A program made the translations under genes and the position numbers. Positions 1 through 5,218 of a stretch of DNA of 5,332 nucleotides are shown here, piece after piece; position 1 is the stretch's first letter; the number at the start of each line of letters is the position of its first letter. This DNA is from a virus. Lineage: Duplodnaviria > Heunggongvirae > Uroviricota > Caudoviricetes. The stretch spans positions 1 to 5,332 of IMG/VR virus record IMGVR_UViG_2537561977_000027; one strand, written 5' to 3'. Under the pieces are notes generated by a model. The model searched no databases. It was given only the letters and a program-made list of their open reading frames with translations, and was not told the DNA's origin.

Positions 1-1005
1 TTAATCCCCCGTGGACACTGCGTGGACACTCACGCCACCTTTCAGCGGATTAAGGGCCACCGCATCCTGCAGGTAATCCGGTGCAAAATGTGCATATGCC
101 ATTGTTTGCTGAATGGTTGCGTGGCCAAGAATCTTCTGAAGCGCAATAATGTTTCCTCCGTTCATCACAAAATGGCTGGCGAACGTATGCCGCAGCACAT
201 GTGCAGCCTGGCCTTTTGGTAAATCGGGCTTAACTCTTTTCAGCGCCAAGCAGAATTCCCGGTACTTCACCTCAAACAAGCCGCCTGTTTCTCTGGTTTT
301 GATCGCCTCACAAACTGCCTGCGAAATTGGCACTGTTCTCTTTCGGCCATTTTTGGTTTCAAGAAACGTTACACGGTTATGAACTATCTGTTCACCACGA
401 AGCTTACAAGCTTCACTCCAGCGCGCCCCTGTGCTTAAACACAAAAGCGCAACACGCCAGTAGTCGCCCTCCAGTGTATCGAGCAATAGCGCTACTTCCT
501 TCTGGGACAGAAAAGCCATTTCTCGTGGGGATACATAAAGAATAGAAATCCCCCTTACCGGATGCTCTGCATCCCAGAGGCCTATTTTCTTCAGTACGGT
601 AAACATTCCGGATAACCGATTCATGTATCTGTTAGCAGATGACGGTTTCAATCCATCAGCTATCTTTTGAGAACGCCACGCGATAATTTTCAGCTTATCA
701 AGATCCACAGCCTGCATATCAGCGCCAAGCTCATTGATTATGTTGCGCAGTTGTTTTCGGTCTTCTTCCGCCTTACGCCTGTGCTGGCCGTGATACATCC
801 ACCACAACTCAAGCAAATCATTTAGCGTTCGACGATCACGGTAGCCCTGTATATATTCCCGCTTTTCAGCGTTCGCCATGATGTAGCGTTCAGTGGCCAC
901 CGCTACCGATTTTTTGTCAAATACCTTACGCACGCGCTTTCCCTTGCGTCCGTTCGGCCTGATGTCCAGCAAATAACGACCATCTTCGAGCTTCTTAATT
1001 GACAT
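1..1005 (-). CDS. int: Tyrosine-type site-specific integrase, P2 Int-like (complete, 334 aa)
   Basis: Long minus-strand ORF. Tyrosine-recombinase catalytic residues are visible in order: R in TGARWSEA, H-x-x-R in HVLRHTFASH, and Y in QTMAYAHF. The N-terminus MSIKKLEDGRY and C-terminus SVHAVSTGD resemble P2 Int as I remember it. The ORF-track start at 1020 is a TTG; the in-frame ATG at 1005-1003 has GGAGGG about 7 nt upstream and is the more likely start. Stop TAA is the reverse complement of positions 1-3. Confidence 0.9.
   Translation of the reverse strand: MSIKKLEDGRYLLDIRPNGRKGKRVRKVFDKKSVAVATERYIMANAEKREYIQGYRDRRTLNDLLELWWMYHGQHRRKAEEDRKQLRNIINELGADMQAVDLDKLKIIAWRSQKIADGLKPSSANRYMNRLSGMFTVLKKIGLWDAEHPVRGISILYVSPREMAFLSQKEVALLLDTLEGDYWRVALLCLSTGARWSEACKLRGEQIVHNRVTFLETKNGRKRTVPISQAVCEAIKTRETGGLFEVKYREFCLALKRVKPDLPKGQAAHVLRHTFASHFVMNGGNIIALQKILGHATIQQTMAYAHFAPDYLQDAVALNPLKGGVSVHAVSTGD
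11..30. repeat. Direct repeat GTGGACACT x2 (11-19 and 22-30) inside the integrase 3' end; possible Int arm-type binding site
   Basis: Exact 9-bp direct repeat read from the sequence, 11 bp centre to centre, at the int 3' end where the phage attachment site is expected just beyond the window edge. It also encodes a peptide repeat (SVH/VST), so it could be purely coding. Confidence 0.3.
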
Positions 1006-1101
1006 TGCGAAGCCCTCCAATGAACCGCTCTACAATTTCTCCAGCCTCTTTCCAGCAATAATCAGACCAGACAAAGAGCAGGTCTAACCAGTTTTCTGGC
1101 C

Positions 1102-1422
1102 TTAGCGGGGTGATTTTTGGTTTGTTTCGGTTGAAACCTGATCGCCCTCCGAATCGAAGAAGCCATCAAGAGAGAGAGGCGGAGCAATCTGCCCCGTCGC
1201 AGCATTAGTTTGATTAAACATCACCCAATCCGAATACTTCCGAAAACGAGGATGATTCAAAATCAGGAGTAACGTTTCTCCAGGTATCATTCTTCCCAAT
1301 ATTTCATAATTTTTGAGATTGTTTTGAGATACCCCCGTCACCTCTTCCATCTCTCTACGTGACAATCCCTCTGCCTCTCGAATCAGGCGAAGTTTTTCTC
1401 CAAGGCTTGATTTATGGATCAT
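1102..1422 (-). CDS. C: Immunity (lysogeny) repressor, P2 C-type small HTH protein (106 aa)
   Basis: Minus-strand ORF between int and the divergent cox gene. N-terminal helix-turn-helix-like segment LSRREMEEVTGVSQNNLKNYE; the C-terminal part (RFRKYSDWVMFNQTNAATGQIAPPLS) resembles P2 C as I recall it. The ORF-track start at 1440 is GTG; the ATG at 1422-1420 is preferred. Stop is the reverse complement of 1102-1104. Confidence 0.75.
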   Translation of the reverse strand: MIHKSSLGEKLRLIREAEGLSRREMEEVTGVSQNNLKNYEILGRMIPGETLLLILNHPRFRKYSDWVMFNQTNAATGQIAPPLSLDGFFDSEGDQVSTETNQKSPR

Positions 1423-1537
1423 ATGTGATCTAAACTCCACACTATTGGGTTACATGTAATACAAAACATTCAAATAGCCAAAATAAGCCTATATAAGCCA
1501 TTTTGGGCCATTTGGCCGAATTAAGGAGATTACCACA
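1423..1537. promoter_or_regulatory. Divergent promoter/operator switch region (Pc leftward for C-int, Pe rightward for cox and early genes)
   Basis: 115-bp AT-rich spacer between divergent C and cox starts. AAGGAG RBS at 1523-1528 precedes the cox ATG. Possible -10 TATATA/TATAAG at 1491-1498. I could not place the -35/-10 hexamers for either promoter with confidence. Confidence 0.6.
1471..1520. repeat. Five-unit direct-repeat array with 10-bp periodicity (candidate Cox/C operator boxes)
   Basis: Reading in 10-mers from 1471: CAAATAGCCA, AAATAAGCCT, ATATAAGCCA, TTTTGGGCCA, TTTGGCCGAA. Each has an A/T-rich half followed by (A/G)GCC(A), in helical phase. P2 Cox is established to bind arrays of direct repeats in the Pe-Pc region; assigning these particular boxes is inference. 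Confidence 0.5.
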
Positions 1538-1825
1538 ATGAGCGAATCAGAGCTTGAGGGGTTCATTCAGGTAGCACCATATCCACTTGAAGCGGTGCCA
1601 TATCAACTATTTGCCAAGATGATTGGTCGCAAAGAATCAACCGTCAGAACCATGATTGACGCTGCAAAGTTACCAACGATTGACTTTGTGAAACCAGGTT
1701 CAGTGAAGACGCGAGCATCAGAAAACTGGGTATATCTGCCAGCATTTAACGCAGGTATGCGCAAAGCGTTTTTTGATCAGCCGAAAGAACGCCGCGATGC
1801 ATGGTTGTTGTGGCTGGGGCTTTAA
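1538..1825 (+). CDS. cox: Cox-like excisionase / early-promoter regulator (95 aa)
   Basis: First gene divergent from the repressor, with a strong RBS. The motifs PYQLFAKMIG, VRTMIDAAKLP, WVYLPAFNAG and a C-terminal WLLWLGL match my memory of P2 Cox. Confidence 0.8.
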   Translation: MSESELEGFIQVAPYPLEAVPYQLFAKMIGRKESTVRTMIDAAKLPTIDFVKPGSVKTRASENWVYLPAFNAGMRKAFFDQPKERRDAWLLWLGL

Positions 1826-1831
1826 TCATAA

Positions 1832-2038
1832 ATGACCAGCAATATCATCAGCGCCATTTTGAGCCTTGTGTACCTGGAAGTGGGAGTAATAGCGATTTAT
1901 CTGCTTAACAAGCTAACAGGGCAAAAAAAGCGCTTTATTGTTCTCAACGTTCATTACCTCGCCGCCTATACCAGAGGTCTTTTTCCGACCACTATTGGCG
2001 CGGTTCTCATAGCGTTTGTTATTTGGCTCATTGGGTAG
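1832..2038 (+). CDS. Small hydrophobic protein with two predicted transmembrane helices (68 aa), function unknown
   Basis: ATG at 1832, 6 nt after the cox stop. Two hydrophobic stretches (IISAILSLVYLEVGVIAIYLL and TIGAVLIAFVIWLIG) separated by a basic loop (GQKKRF). RBS is weak (GGGG about 12 nt upstream), so it may depend on coupling to cox. Confidence 0.55.
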   Translation: MTSNIISAILSLVYLEVGVIAIYLLNKLTGQKKRFIVLNVHYLAAYTRGLFPTTIGAVLIAFVIWLIG

Positions 2039-2142
2039 AGGCACAAAAAATGAATAAGCAACAGCAAAACAGCGAACCCCATCACATGAGGTTTCGCCGT
2101 AGATACTTCAAAAATGGACGTTATGTAGGATGCATCAATCGA

Positions 2143-2583
2143 TTAGCCAAACAAGTGTTTAAAAGCAAAGGAGATACCTGTGGTAAGCGCAGATGAGGCG
2201 GTGCTTTTTATTGCATCTATCGCCCCACTCTTGGTTGCATCGACAAGTTTATCTCCAAGCGATTGCTTAAGTGACTCTGGATCAAGTTTCAATAATTCAA
2301 GTCCTTTAGCCGTAAGTACCGCCTTATCGAAACTTTCAAAAGGAACAGCATCAGCAGATACATAACCAGCAGCAATAAGCCACTCAATGGAGTAATAACG
2401 AAGAACAAGAGCTTCATGTTTTTGCTTTCTGACCGCCGGGTCCTTCTCTTCAAACGTTGGAGCGGAAACACCGGTTAAAGCACAAACATCAATGGTTACT
2501 TTTCGGGGAAATGACTCATAAAGAAACGCAAAAGTTTTACCAACAGTTTCATTAAAAACATCAATATTTGAAGGTGTTGCCAT
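2143..2583 (-). CDS. Hypothetical protein (146 aa), antisense to the early operon; soluble N-terminal domain plus Gly/Ala/Ser-rich hydrophobic C-terminal tail
   Basis: Minus-strand ORF with ATG at 2583-2581 and GAGG 6 nt upstream. Protein-like composition, whereas plus-strand frames across the same interval are S/A/L-rich junk. Local GC is visibly lower than the flanks. C-terminal tail AIDAIKSTASSALTTGISFAFKHLFG. I do not recognise the family. The ORF-track 229-aa version (to 2832) has a junk-like N-terminal extension and a non-ATG start. Confidence 0.6.
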   Translation of the reverse strand: MATPSNIDVFNETVGKTFAFLYESFPRKVTIDVCALTGVSAPTFEEKDPAVRKQKHEALVLRYYSIEWLIAAGYVSADAVPFESFDKAVLTAKGLELLKLDPESLKQSLGDKLVDATKSGAIDAIKSTASSALTTGISFAFKHLFG

Positions 2584-2791
2584 GGATAACCTCACACAGA
2601 CAAAAGAAACAGCCATAAAAGAACTATATGACGATTTACGTTCCATCATTACACAACAAAAATCAGGTCGGCTAGACCCTACACGAGCAAAAGCCGCATG
2701 GGAAGTGGCACTGGCCAACCGGGATACTGGAGTAATTAGTGAAGTTATGGCCGAAGTAATTTTTAAACTTACAAGAAACATCAGACTGTAG
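2582..2791 (+). CDS. Hypothetical small helical protein (69 aa)
   Basis: ATG at 2582 with AGGTG 6 nt upstream. Charged, helix-like composition (KETAIKELYDDLRSIITQQK). The start codon overlaps the divergent start of the minus-strand gene within CCATGG. Stop TAG at 2789-2791. Confidence 0.55.
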   Translation: MDNLTQTKETAIKELYDDLRSIITQQKSGRLDPTRAKAAWEVALANRDTGVISEVMAEVIFKLTRNIRL

Positions 2792-2820
2792 ATCTTCAAC
2801 ACATTGAGGCAAGTCGGAAT

Positions 2821-3162
2821 ATGAAACAGCAACGTAATTCACGCTTTCGTAATGGTGCTGAACGCCACGCTAACCGTTTCGCTACCAGTGCATCACGCAG
2901 TAACATCCGCTACAGCCTGAGCGAAACACACGCAACACCGGATGGCCACGCTGTAAAACAAATCGGCGAGCATGCCTGGCTGATTGAGAAAGCTGGAATC
3001 GTGGTCCACAAATGCCCACGCAATCCGTTTACCGGAAACCGCATTTTTGCATTGAGCTGCGGCGACAATCACTTCGGGCAGGATTTCACATTATACGAAG
3101 CACTTCGCACGGTTGATCGTCTGCTTCGCGGGCAAAGTTTTATTAAACAGGCTGATTTATAA
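2821..3162 (+). CDS. Hypothetical early-region protein (113 aa), basic N-terminus
   Basis: ATG at 2821; GAGG about 11 nt upstream. Single long ORF with an Arg-rich N-terminal ~30 residues. No family recognised. Confidence 0.5.
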   Translation: MKQQRNSRFRNGAERHANRFATSASRSNIRYSLSETHATPDGHAVKQIGEHAWLIEKAGIVVHKCPRNPFTGNRIFALSCGDNHFGQDFTLYEALRTVDRLLRGQSFIKQADL

Positions 3163-3172
3163 CAGGTGCTTT

Positions 3173-3451
3173 ATGACCAAAGAGCATGCACAAGGTGTAT
3201 TTATCCGTTTTATTGATTTTCGCGGTGAACTGTTATTACGCGCATCAGCCATTGACGGAGTTGTTCCATCCGAAAAAAACGCAGCTACTTACGTTTATCT
3301 GAACGGTACGCGCCTGACTGTGGAGCTTCCGTACCAGACCGTACGAGAAATCATTAGCGAAGCTGAAAAGGCACGTCAGGTTAATGGCGATGAACCCTAT
3401 ATCGAAATTATTTGTATGGATTCAGAAGCTGAAATTCAGAAAGCAGATTAA
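3173..3451 (+). CDS. Hypothetical early-region protein (92 aa)
   Basis: The ORF-track start at 3113 is TTG and overlaps the previous gene. The ATG at 3173 with AGGTG 4 nt upstream is preferred. Stop TAA at 3449-3451. Confidence 0.55.
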   Translation: MTKEHAQGVFIRFIDFRGELLLRASAIDGVVPSEKNAATYVYLNGTRLTVELPYQTVREIISEAEKARQVNGDEPYIEIICMDSEAEIQKAD

Positions 3452-3462
3452 AGGGCGTTGCG

Positions 3463-3705
3463 ATGGGCAAAGAATATAAAACTCTCATTAATAAAGCACT
3501 TGAACGATTTTATTTTCGCTTAAGTGCATCAGGCGCTCATGCTGAACGTGCAGCCCGTGACTCATTGACCAGGGCAATCCGGAGTCTGTATGACGTGGCT
3601 TTTTACGCTGATGATCTGGATGCACTTAACGAACTTTCCGAGCTAATCTGTGCCGCAGAATGCGGGGAACATATTGAACCGTATAAGCTGGGGAATATCG
3701 CATGA
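3463..3705 (+). CDS. Hypothetical early-region protein (80 aa)
   Basis: ATG at 3463, with AAGGG 7 nt upstream. Stop TGA at 3703-3705 overlaps the next start (ATGA). Confidence 0.55.
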   Translation: MGKEYKTLINKALERFYFRLSASGAHAERAARDSLTRAIRSLYDVAFYADDLDALNELSELICAAECGEHIEPYKLGNIA

Positions 3706-4664: not shown

Positions 4665-4780
4665 GAAACCAGAACATGTACACACAAAAAACCGCTTGCC
4701 ATGCCGCAATCAGTCAGGTTACATTTCCGTTGCATCTCATAAAACGGGGGCCGGGTTTCGCAGCCTGCTGATCAACAAAG

Positions 4781-4810
4781 CGCACAACCGCGCCAGCGGT
4801 TTTTTGTGCG
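4781..4810 (+). terminator. Intrinsic-terminator-like hairpin followed by a T-run
   Basis: Inner stem AACCGC (4786-4791) / GCGGTT (4796-4801) with loop GCCA, then TTTT (4802-4805). Outer arms CGCACA (4781-4786) / TGTGCG (4805-4810) can extend the helix across a T bulge. A second T-run of six follows at 4828-4833. Confidence 0.45.
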
Positions 4811-4861
4811 TACCGCATTGCCGCACATTTTTTCGCATCAGAATTATGGTGGGGCGTACGG

Positions 4862-4891
4862 GGCCGACTTCGGTCGGGCCGGGTTTTCTTT
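4862..4891 (+). terminator. GC-rich hairpin with TTCG tetraloop followed by a U-rich tract
   Basis: GGCCGAC (4862-4868), loop TTCG, GTCGGGCC (4873-4880) with one bulge, then GGGTTTTCTTTG. The interrupted U-tract makes terminator function uncertain; it could instead be a stable RNA structural element. Confidence 0.35.
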
Positions 4892-4987
4892 GTTGACCGG
4901 TACTGCGAACCTCGTACGTCTCGCCACCCACAGTTTCGCAGCTCTGGATGGTGAGTATTCAAAACTTACCAACAAAGAGGCCATACC

Positions 4988-5218
4988 ATGGCAAACCGCA
5001 AACAGCACCGCGCTATCGCGGAGCGTCGTCACATCCAGACTGAAATCAACCGCAGACTTTCCCGCGCATCACGCGTCGCGCAAATCATGCACATCAATAT
5101 GCTGCATGAGCGCAGCCACGCACTATCAAACATTTATTCCGCCTCTGTTTTCAGCTATCTGGCGGATGATCTGCACGAGCTTCAACAGCTCATCCAGCAG
5201 CAAAACAAACTCCATTAA
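4988..5218 (+). CDS. Hypothetical small basic/helical protein (76 aa)
   Basis: ATG at 4988 with AAGAGG at 4974-4979. Arg-rich N-terminus (MANRKQHRAIAERRHIQTEINRRLSRASR), no cysteines. First gene after the structured region. No family recognised. Confidence 0.5.
   Translation: MANRKQHRAIAERRHIQTEINRRLSRASRVAQIMHINMLHERSHALSNIYSASVFSYLADDLHELQQLIQQQNKLH

Follow-up and report, generated by a model that had tools for sequence, protein, structure and literature searches.

A mobile two-gene cassette with a shared start codon region in the early operon of a P2-family prophage, possibly encoding a defense protein and its antidote

Gene content of the locus

The window analyzed here, a stretch of 5332 bp from a tailed-phage record, is identical to a part of the Escherichia coli FDAARGOS_943 chromosome (NZ_CP065615.1), where the source prophage adjoins pdxB. 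P2-family phages of the genus Xuanwuvirus (Shae_phiSM, P88_4B11, and PhiR44_2) match most of the window with 92-94% identity. The window covers the early region, int-C-cox, of a prophage of the P88-like (Xuanwuvirus) type. The subject of this study is a pair of head-to-head genes in this region, encoding proteins of 146 amino acids (aa) (2143-2583, minus strand) and 69 aa (2582-2791, plus strand) and referred to below as the big and the small gene, respectively. We are highly confident that these genes form a mobile two-gene cassette that was inserted into the phage backbone and in which both genes start from one shared CATG tetranucleotide.

The window begins with the genes for the integrase (1-1020, minus strand) and the C repressor (1102-1440, minus strand), followed by cox (1538-1825, plus strand; Pfam Phage_Cox, E = 1e-22). 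Directly downstream of cox are two open reading frames (ORFs) on the plus strand, one of 68 aa (1832-2038; phrog_14475) and a micro-ORF of 48 aa (2050-2196). The small gene is followed by a DUF4761 gene (2821-3162, plus strand), a DUF4754 gene, and more early genes. The site of insertion is the early (Pe) operon of the P88-like P2-family prophage, between the micro-ORF and the DUF4761 gene.

A first-pass annotation of the sequence had assigned the 68-aa ORF, the micro-ORF, and the big and small genes to a single accessory module at 1832-2791. All four ORFs are present, and their description was accurate: the 68-aa protein, proposed to cross the membrane twice, has two hydrophobic segments (19-residue Kyte-Doolittle maxima of 2.17 and 2.23) and an isoelectric point (pI) of 9.9, and the micro-ORF product is highly basic (pI 11.3). 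The GC content, which had been said to be lower than in the flanks, is modestly so, with 0.421 at 1832-2791 and 0.415 in the insert, versus 0.471 in the whole window and 0.465 at 2818-3700. The module itself, as shown below, was drawn too widely.

The inserted cassette and the phage backbone

Comparison with the related phages by blastn delimits the insert. Homology to Shae_phiSM continues to position 2125 and resumes at 2842, so that 2126-2841 are lost; homology to P88_4B11 and PhiR44_2 extends to 2039 and is back at 2818, with 2040-2817 lost. In these three phages, all devoid of the big and small genes, the 68-aa gene is found directly 3' of cox, and a short basic ORF matching the start of the micro-ORF is also present. 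Among 5426 complete E. coli genomes, the 68-aa gene and the micro-ORF start occur in 75, nearly all of which lack the big and small genes, whereas the segment with these two genes occurs in only three (FDAARGOS_943, DETEC-S792, and JNEC-KY204). In the latter two strains, the cassette has about 74% nucleotide identity to that of the window, and spans window positions 2158-2779; its immediate neighbors there, in another P2-like prophage without the 68-aa gene and the micro-ORF, are a different cox and DUF4761. These two genes are likewise absent beside the cassettes of other prophages from Yersinia, Morganella, and Pseudomonas.

Because of the breakpoints and the genome distribution, we assign the 68-aa gene and the micro-ORF to the lineage backbone, outside the cassette, and the segment at approximately 2126-2817 to an inserted mobile cassette, probably of the "moron" type, about 0.7 kb long and containing little beyond the two genes. 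Of the features expected of a moron, presence or absence between collinear relatives, opposite orientation, and lower GC content are all observed here, and a promoter and a terminator of its own are weakly suggested. The accessory character proposed in the first-pass annotation thus applies to the big and small genes. The 68-aa gene and the micro-ORF behave as core early genes of the P88-like (Xuanwuvirus) lineage, a status that the cassette, being absent from the three related phages and present in 3 of 5426 genomes, does not share.

The same data bear on the idea that all four genes act together, as might be suggested by their clustering within 1 kb of slightly low GC content. The 68-aa gene and the micro-ORF exist without the cassette genes in three sequenced phages and are present in 75 genomes, and the cassette exists without them in DETEC-S792, JNEC-KY204, Yersinia, Morganella, and Pseudomonas. 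A four-part module is refuted by this distribution, and we regard it as extremely improbable. Similarly, the proposed pairing of the small membrane protein with the larger protein on the opposite strand does not survive, since the 68-aa gene (75 genomes) occurs independently of the cassette (3 genomes), an outcome that the annotation itself had named as refuting.

As judged from its alignments, the micro-ORF is a real gene of the lineage whose C-terminus has been changed by read-through into the insert. Its first ~25 residues, MNKQQQNSEPHHMRFRRRYFKNGRYVG, align with gp43 of P88_4B11 and the start of Shae_044 of Shae_phiSM; its 3' end is replaced at the breakpoint near 2125 and now shares 54 nt with that of the big gene. 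The lineage pattern MNxQQ...MRFxRxYFxxGxYxG is seen in the window (2050-2196) and in two further loci (L001, 2243-2701; L002, 2680-2787). In Shae_phiSM, the micro-ORF is annotated in-frame with DUF4761 as one 152-aa ORF, and its N-terminus resembles that of DUF4761, MKQQRNSRFRNG. A 16-nt imperfect direct repeat (88%) brackets the insert on the plus strand, with the left copy at the start of the micro-ORF (2052-2067, GAATAAGCAACAGCAA) and the right copy at the start of the DUF4761 gene (2817-2832, GAATATGAAACAGCAA). Cassettes may be exchanged by recombination at this repeat, or the repeat may simply mirror the likeness of the two N-termini, MNKQQ and MKQQ. The micro-ORF also contains a hairpin that resembles a terminator and has a T-run (2075-2093, minus strand); it lies in backbone sequence, 50 nt past the stop codon of the big gene.

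The shared start of the two genes

Both start codons of the cassette can be read from the palindrome CATG at 2581-2584, with one ATG at 2582-2584 on the plus strand and the other at 2583-2581 on the minus strand. The Shine-Dalgarno sequence of the small gene, GAAGGTG (2570-2576, plus strand), is situated in codons 3-5 (T-P-S) of the big gene, and that of the big gene, TGTGAGG (2590-2596, minus strand), in codons 3-5 of the small gene. The same arrangement is seen in the family consensus, where GGAG precedes CATG by 8-13 nt and the downstream sequence, ...CTCCAATAT, reads GGAG on the opposite strand, placing a GGAG-type Shine-Dalgarno sequence on each strand inside codons 3-5 of the opposite gene. 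With a single tetranucleotide as their common point of divergence, neither gene can be transcribed except from within the other, and the leader of either mRNA is antisense to the ribosome-binding site and start codon of the partner gene.

The start overlap is exactly 2 nt (CATG) in 63 of the 78 pairs in which it could be resolved. In the remaining pairs the starts are 0, +1, +4, or +20 nt apart, save for one locus (L120) with a fusion gene about 1.5 kb off. The 49 CATG-sharing contexts with full flanks represent 36 nucleotide clusters (at most 85% identity), and the overlap is kept at many genomic positions and down to approximately 25-40% protein identity; it is also annotated in Klebsiella phage ST147-VIM1phi7.1 and Salmonella phage FSL SP-004. 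An exact 2-nt start overlap maintained over at least 36 nucleotide clusters is distinctive.

The 146-aa ORF is the ATG-initiated part of a 229-aa stop-to-stop ORF, and its start is fixed by the N-terminus MxTPxNI, which is conserved in the homologs. Both cassette genes are called in the source genome by the NCBI annotation pipeline PGAP (Prokaryotic Genome Annotation Pipeline). In eleven comparisons covering both genes, the ratio of nonsynonymous to synonymous substitution rates (dN/dS) was 0.06-0.34, with 0.08-0.34 for the small gene. Given these calls, the homologs, and the dN/dS values, both are real coding genes under purifying selection.

Distribution and conservation of the pair

A search of 1.84 billion cluster representatives with the profile of the big protein yielded 1589 clusters at E <= 1e-3, mostly of ~135-160 residues and matched over nearly the full length. 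Homologs were found in Yersinia, Morganella, Proteus, Arsenophonus, and other genera. For the analysis of gene context, 108 further loci were fetched and an iterated hidden Markov model was built for the 69-aa family. The small gene is directly upstream and divergent in 81 of 122 loci with the big gene. The assembled set comprises 60 distinct protein pairs, and prophages of Yersinia, Morganella, Pectobacterium, and Pseudomonas are among those that carry the pair. The pairwise identities of the two proteins co-vary (mirror-tree r = 0.87, Mantel p ~0.001). Of the three proteins (68, 146, and 69 aa) for which the first-pass annotation had suggested a co-occurrence analysis, the latter two do occur together, in a fixed head-to-head geometry, and the 68-aa protein does not belong with them. 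The 85 database homologs of the small protein are unnamed or "hypothetical", save for three with evidently spurious source names.

The pair is found at several kinds of genomic positions. In P2-family prophages it occupies the early region: it follows cox in E. coli, is preceded by cox and an unrelated 67-aa gene in Morganella, and is located between a C-like repressor gene and cox in Yersinia. In a contig of a Mu/P2-like myovirus (L016) it lies between the tail tube and tail-assembly-chaperone genes. When the proteins flanking 67 clusters were scanned against Pfam, the lambda-type large terminase was the most frequent neighbor (15), ahead of the tail tube (11), the lambda-type portal (10), and the tail assembly chaperone (4). 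Many family members are located between TerL and portal. The operons hosting the pair are lytic ones of the early, packaging, or tail regions, with the small gene in the sense and the big gene in the antisense orientation. Both nearest neighbors are on the strand of the small gene in 57 of 80 pairs, which indicates that the small gene, as a rule, belongs to a lytic operon in which the big gene is the only one in antisense.

Each gene is also found without the other. The big gene is alone in 41 of the 122 loci, many of them within prophages but also in an integrative and conjugative element (ICE) and beside a transposase. The solo big genes are phylogenetically interspersed with the paired ones and have up to 86% identity to a paired homolog. 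Conversely, seven E. coli genomes contain the small gene alone, with a 37-nt remnant of the 5' end of the big gene. These cases, together with the Klebsiella and Salmonella homologs of the big gene, whose small partner has no detectable similarity to the small family, could mean that the two genes are unrelated morons that travel together owing to tight packing. We consider this very improbable, as the 2-nt overlap is kept at many positions down to ~25-40% protein identity and the pairwise divergences of the two proteins are strongly correlated.

Several individual loci deserve mention. In the locus with the 86% identical solo gene (L015, 3906-3977 and 2708-3781), the big gene adjoins a DDE transposase and a 23-aa ORF occupies the expected place of the small gene, which may have been lost to an insertion sequence. 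In E. coli EC2 (L127, 3501-3731), a 64-aa small gene stands alone before DUF4761 in another P2-like prophage, as it does in six further E. coli genomes; here the big gene has apparently been deleted and the small gene retained intact. The big-family members of ST147-VIM1phi7.1 (L125, 2799-3423) and FSL SP-004 (L126, 313-934) were detected with E ~1e-33 and have partners of 63-64 aa that overlap their start by 2 nt and show no detectable similarity to the small family of the window. The former is beside the portal gene, in the gpA-portal defense hotspot, and the latter is beside a Fic gene. In the Yersinia prophage L006 (3781-4676), an opposite-strand gene for a 155-aa protein with hydrophobic segments and an 86-aa gene adjoin the pair in the interval from the C-like repressor gene to cox, and the switch region seems to have gathered several accessory genes.

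The small domain also occurs in a fused form. In locus L120, it is the C-terminal part of a 247-aa protein (6219-6962, minus strand) encoded ~1.5 kb from a big-family gene and corresponding to phrog_3787. The N-terminal region of this protein has a Walker A motif (VSGPVGSGKS) and only P-loop-level database matches. Finally, many small proteins of Pseudomonas (L016, L019, L023, L024, L042, L067, and others) end in a cysteine-rich tail, for instance PRCRCCKQC or PRCRCGRCCRTC, which is absent from the enterobacterial ones and may be a metal-binding or modification site.

Predicted properties of the two proteins

Structural modeling predicts a winged-helix domain for the big protein, which is acidic; its last 30 residues form an amphipathic helix. 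The model retrieved a generic winged helix in a fold search against the PDB and nothing at E <= 1e-3 in the viral BFVD database; searches against PDB sequence profiles produced only sub-threshold MarR-like matches and designed helical repeats. The family has a median pI of 5.0, with pI below 6 in 63 of 67 members. Its least conserved parts are the region equivalent to the helix-turn-helix (HTH) motif (27-64) and the wing tip (76-87), which evolve 1.1-4.6 times faster than the conserved scaffold and still below neutrality. A C-terminal transmembrane anchor was considered and ruled out, the median of the 19-residue hydropathy maximum being ~1.0.

The winged-helix fold, which the big protein is predicted to share with MarR-type and other DNA-binding regulators, raises the possibility that it is a MarR-like transcription factor reprogramming host or phage genes in the lysogen, with the small protein as an anti-repressor. 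We consider this decidedly unlikely. Unlike such regulators, the big protein is acidic, has a hypervariable HTH face and an additional amphipathic C-terminal helix, and belongs to no Pfam family above threshold. Neither a family-level MarR match nor a conserved basic recognition helix was found among the 67 relatives, which gave sporadic Pfam matches, all far below the family thresholds; the region of the recognition helix is often acidic and hydrophobic, for example NAEGEFFFACIQWLAEAGY. In addition, the 2-nt overlap of the starts leaves the divergent genes without intergenic space for an operator. Because the family is acidic, its HTH face variable, and its C-terminal helix amphipathic, we favor protein binding over DNA binding for the big protein. 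The name DUF2513, attached to a UniRef entry, was rejected as a family assignment, with one sub-threshold match in 67 members and no relevant literature.

The small protein is confidently modeled as a three-helix bundle (helices at 2-28, 33-44, and 49-64; AlphaFold2 predicted local distance difference test score 92.5). Residues Q26, D32, R35, A36, W40, and L44 are conserved in the family. A fold search with this model retrieved generic three-helix matches and no informative structural neighbors.

Pfam and NCBIfam contained no match for either cassette protein and nothing useful for the four proteins of 1832-2791 as a whole. In PHROGs, the big protein belongs to phrog_2266, and relatives of the small protein match phrog_25421 and the C-terminal third of phrog_3787, all three being families of "unknown function"; the 69-aa protein of the window itself had no PHROG match. 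The library scans revealed no HEPN or other enzymatic domain in the cassette proteins. Neither family is described in the libraries and literature searched, and no papers mentioning their accessions were found there.

Predicted function of the cassette

We tentatively favor the interpretation, which we rate as a possibility slightly short of probable, that the big gene is a defense gene and the small gene encodes its cognate antidote, which keeps the defense or immunity type of function suggested in the first-pass annotation. The proposal was derived from the anatomy of the cassette and then proved to match four systems characterized by experiment, Tai/Ati, Tha/Ith, Tab/anti-Tab, and TerI/anti-TerI, whose layout the cassette mirrors. 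In all four, the prophage expresses a protein that keeps incoming phages from assembling or growing, and self-inhibition is prevented by a small cognate inhibitor produced in the lytic cycle.

In P2, the C repressor represses Pe in the lysogen. Since the small gene is in the C-repressed Pe operon and the big gene opposes Pe, we infer that they are expressed reciprocally, the big gene in lysogeny and the small gene after induction. In the lysogen, with Pe repressed by C, a separate promoter close to the 3' end of the small gene would drive the big gene. The product of the big gene would protect the lysogen by binding a protein, most likely one that belongs to a superinfecting phage, with exclusion or assembly interference as plausible modes of action. 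After induction, transcription from Pe would run antisense through the big gene and shut it down, and the same transcript would yield the small protein, which would bind and neutralize the leftover big protein, so that the prophage does not inhibit itself. The orphan small genes would fit an antidote that is useful alone.

A candidate promoter for the big gene was found by a relaxed consensus scan at 2785-2812 on the minus strand (-35 TTGCCT, 16-nt spacer, -10 TACAGT), at the 3' end of the small gene and within the insert. It is a weak, consensus-level prediction; a similar element, TTCACT-18-TACAGT, is present at the same place in DETEC-S792. The cassette of the window lies in the integrase-to-gpA interval, which holds 8% of the defense systems of P2 phages, the main hotspot being between gpA and portal (PMC13586616).

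Several observations weigh against the defense-antidote interpretation. The frequency of solo big genes indicates that tolerance of the big protein does not, in general, depend on the small one. The big protein has no recognizable effector domain, and hhalign and hmmsearch revealed no homology of the cassette proteins to Tai, Ati, Tab, or JBD26 gp30. No match at E <= 1 was obtained in PADLOC-DB 2.0.0, a library that dates from 2023 and does not include Tai, Tha, and Tab, for the 68-, 48-, 146-, and 69-aa proteins and two neighbor proteins. A strict promoter scan of 1400-3300 returned no sites, and the candidate upstream of the big gene is, as noted, weak. Finally, the level of the TaiEcA protein of phi80 did not drop after induction (PMC11364771), so antisense shut-off is not guaranteed even in the precedent.

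The reciprocal architecture would also suit an accessory lysis-lysogeny toggle of the phage itself, with no role against other phages, in which the winged-helix protein restrains a lytic step or acts on a host factor and the small protein releases this restraint. The location of the pair in regulatory and early regions of P2-like phages, such as that between the C-like repressor gene and cox in Yersinia, and the winged-helix fold agree with this explanation, but the cassette is rare and patchy in the lineage (3 versus 75 genomes) and occurs at unrelated positions (early, packaging, tail, ICE, and chromosome) in unrelated elements, as expected for cargo rather than a core regulator, and the big gene is also found in the ICE and beside the transposase, away from any phage. 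We regard such a toggle as unlikely, with a small but real chance of being correct.

A toxin-antitoxin or addiction module stabilizing the prophage, with the big protein as the toxin and the small protein as the antitoxin, is highly improbable. Such an architecture had been proposed in the first-pass annotation, and two small co-inherited genes on mobile elements would suit it. However, the pair shows none of the hallmarks of a type II system, namely, a co-directional bicistronic arrangement, a toxin domain, and a toxin that needs its antitoxin: the genes are divergent and not co-transcribed, no toxin domain was found, and the presumed toxin is intact without its partner in about one-third of the loci, one of them 86% identical to a paired locus.

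The defense-antidote interpretation may be taken further, into a version that we consider speculative and somewhat unlikely. The CATG pair could be a self-contained expression toggle, in which the 5' leaders mask each other's ribosome-binding sites, coupled to a protein-protein antidote. The two families would then form a large unrecognized prophage defense and anti-defense family (at least ~1600 clusters at 50% identity), the hypervariable face of the big protein would read a structural or packaging protein of competing phages, and the orphan small genes would be portable counter-defenses.

If the favored model is true, the cassette represents a new, widespread, and very compact defense gene with its cognate antidote, non-homologous to Tai/Ati, Tha/Ith, and Tab/anti-Tab, and the antisense-defense and antidote design extends to P2-family early operons and many Pseudomonas prophages. 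The shared CATG with a Shine-Dalgarno sequence in codons 3-5 of the other gene provides a simple signature for finding more such modules, which is of practical value because the small gene is often missed by gene callers, as it was in the Mu/P2-like contig L016. The same geometry could be used for testing how a head-to-head overlap enforces mutually exclusive expression. Should the model fail, the conserved and unusual arrangement of the two genes stands as a documented observation.

Comparison with known systems

The cassette has the layout of a noncontiguous operon, with an antisense gene in the position of the defense gene and an adjacent small sense gene. This architecture is of a recently recognized kind, of which the families described here would be a new non-homologous variant. 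A close parallel in gene order is the tail assembly inhibition system and its counterpart anti-Tai (Tai/Ati) of E. coli phage phi80, where the defense gene orf63 is antisense in the lytic operon and orf64 (76 aa), positioned head to head with it in the sense of the operon, encodes the cognate inhibitor (PMC11364771). The annotated 5' ends of orf63 (minus strand) and orf64 overlap by 20 nt. The tai genes are morons of prophages, P4-like satellites, and phage-inducible chromosomal islands, and an Ati partner is detectable in only some of them (PMC11364771). Unlike the cassette, the phi80 operon is a late rather than an early one, and TaiEcA has 204 aa, compared with the 146-aa winged-helix protein. 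The hhalign probabilities were 0.2% for the big protein versus TaiEcA and 0.1% for the small protein versus AtiEcA; hmmsearch gave E = 0.67 for the big protein in a nine-sequence database and no match for the small one.

In Tha/Ith of Staphylococcus aureus phage 80alpha, a noncontiguous operon, the genes are also on opposite strands with overlapping transcription, and their expression states are mutually exclusive, tying immunity to lysogeny and relief to induction (PMC11087260). The polarity is reversed relative to the cassette, tha being in the cI operon and ith antisense, and Tha is a HEPN RNase. Tab of Pseudomonas phage JBD26 resembles the big protein as a small non-enzymatic moron protein expressed by the prophage from the opposite strand in the packaging region; it is encoded antisense between TerS and TerL and is countered by a late-operon protein (PMC10884400). 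The big-family members between TerL and portal occupy an equivalent place. In contrast to the cassette, the overlap in JBD26 is convergent, at the 3' ends, instead of a shared start, and Tab, with 83 aa, has no similarity to either family. TerI/anti-TerI is a system of the same kind from a Listeria prophage.

The lysogenic-conversion genes of P2, old, tin, and Z/fun, also agree with the proposed model in being accessory genes of the P2 family that the lysogen expresses and that counter other phages, but they have no homology to the cassette genes. They are not known to be embedded antisense in the early operon or to have a paired antidote gene.

Structured RNAs in the window

The Rfam scan produced no match within 1832-2791. 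Farther downstream, two matches exceeded the gathering score, an isrK Hfq-binding RNA (4732-4806, plus strand; 56.9 bits) and a C4 antisense RNA (4842-4931, plus strand; 77.8 bits). Both are located just 5' of a 76-aa ORF (4988-5218), before the region of the replication gene, and this stretch looks like an RNA-controlled regulator module of the prophage.

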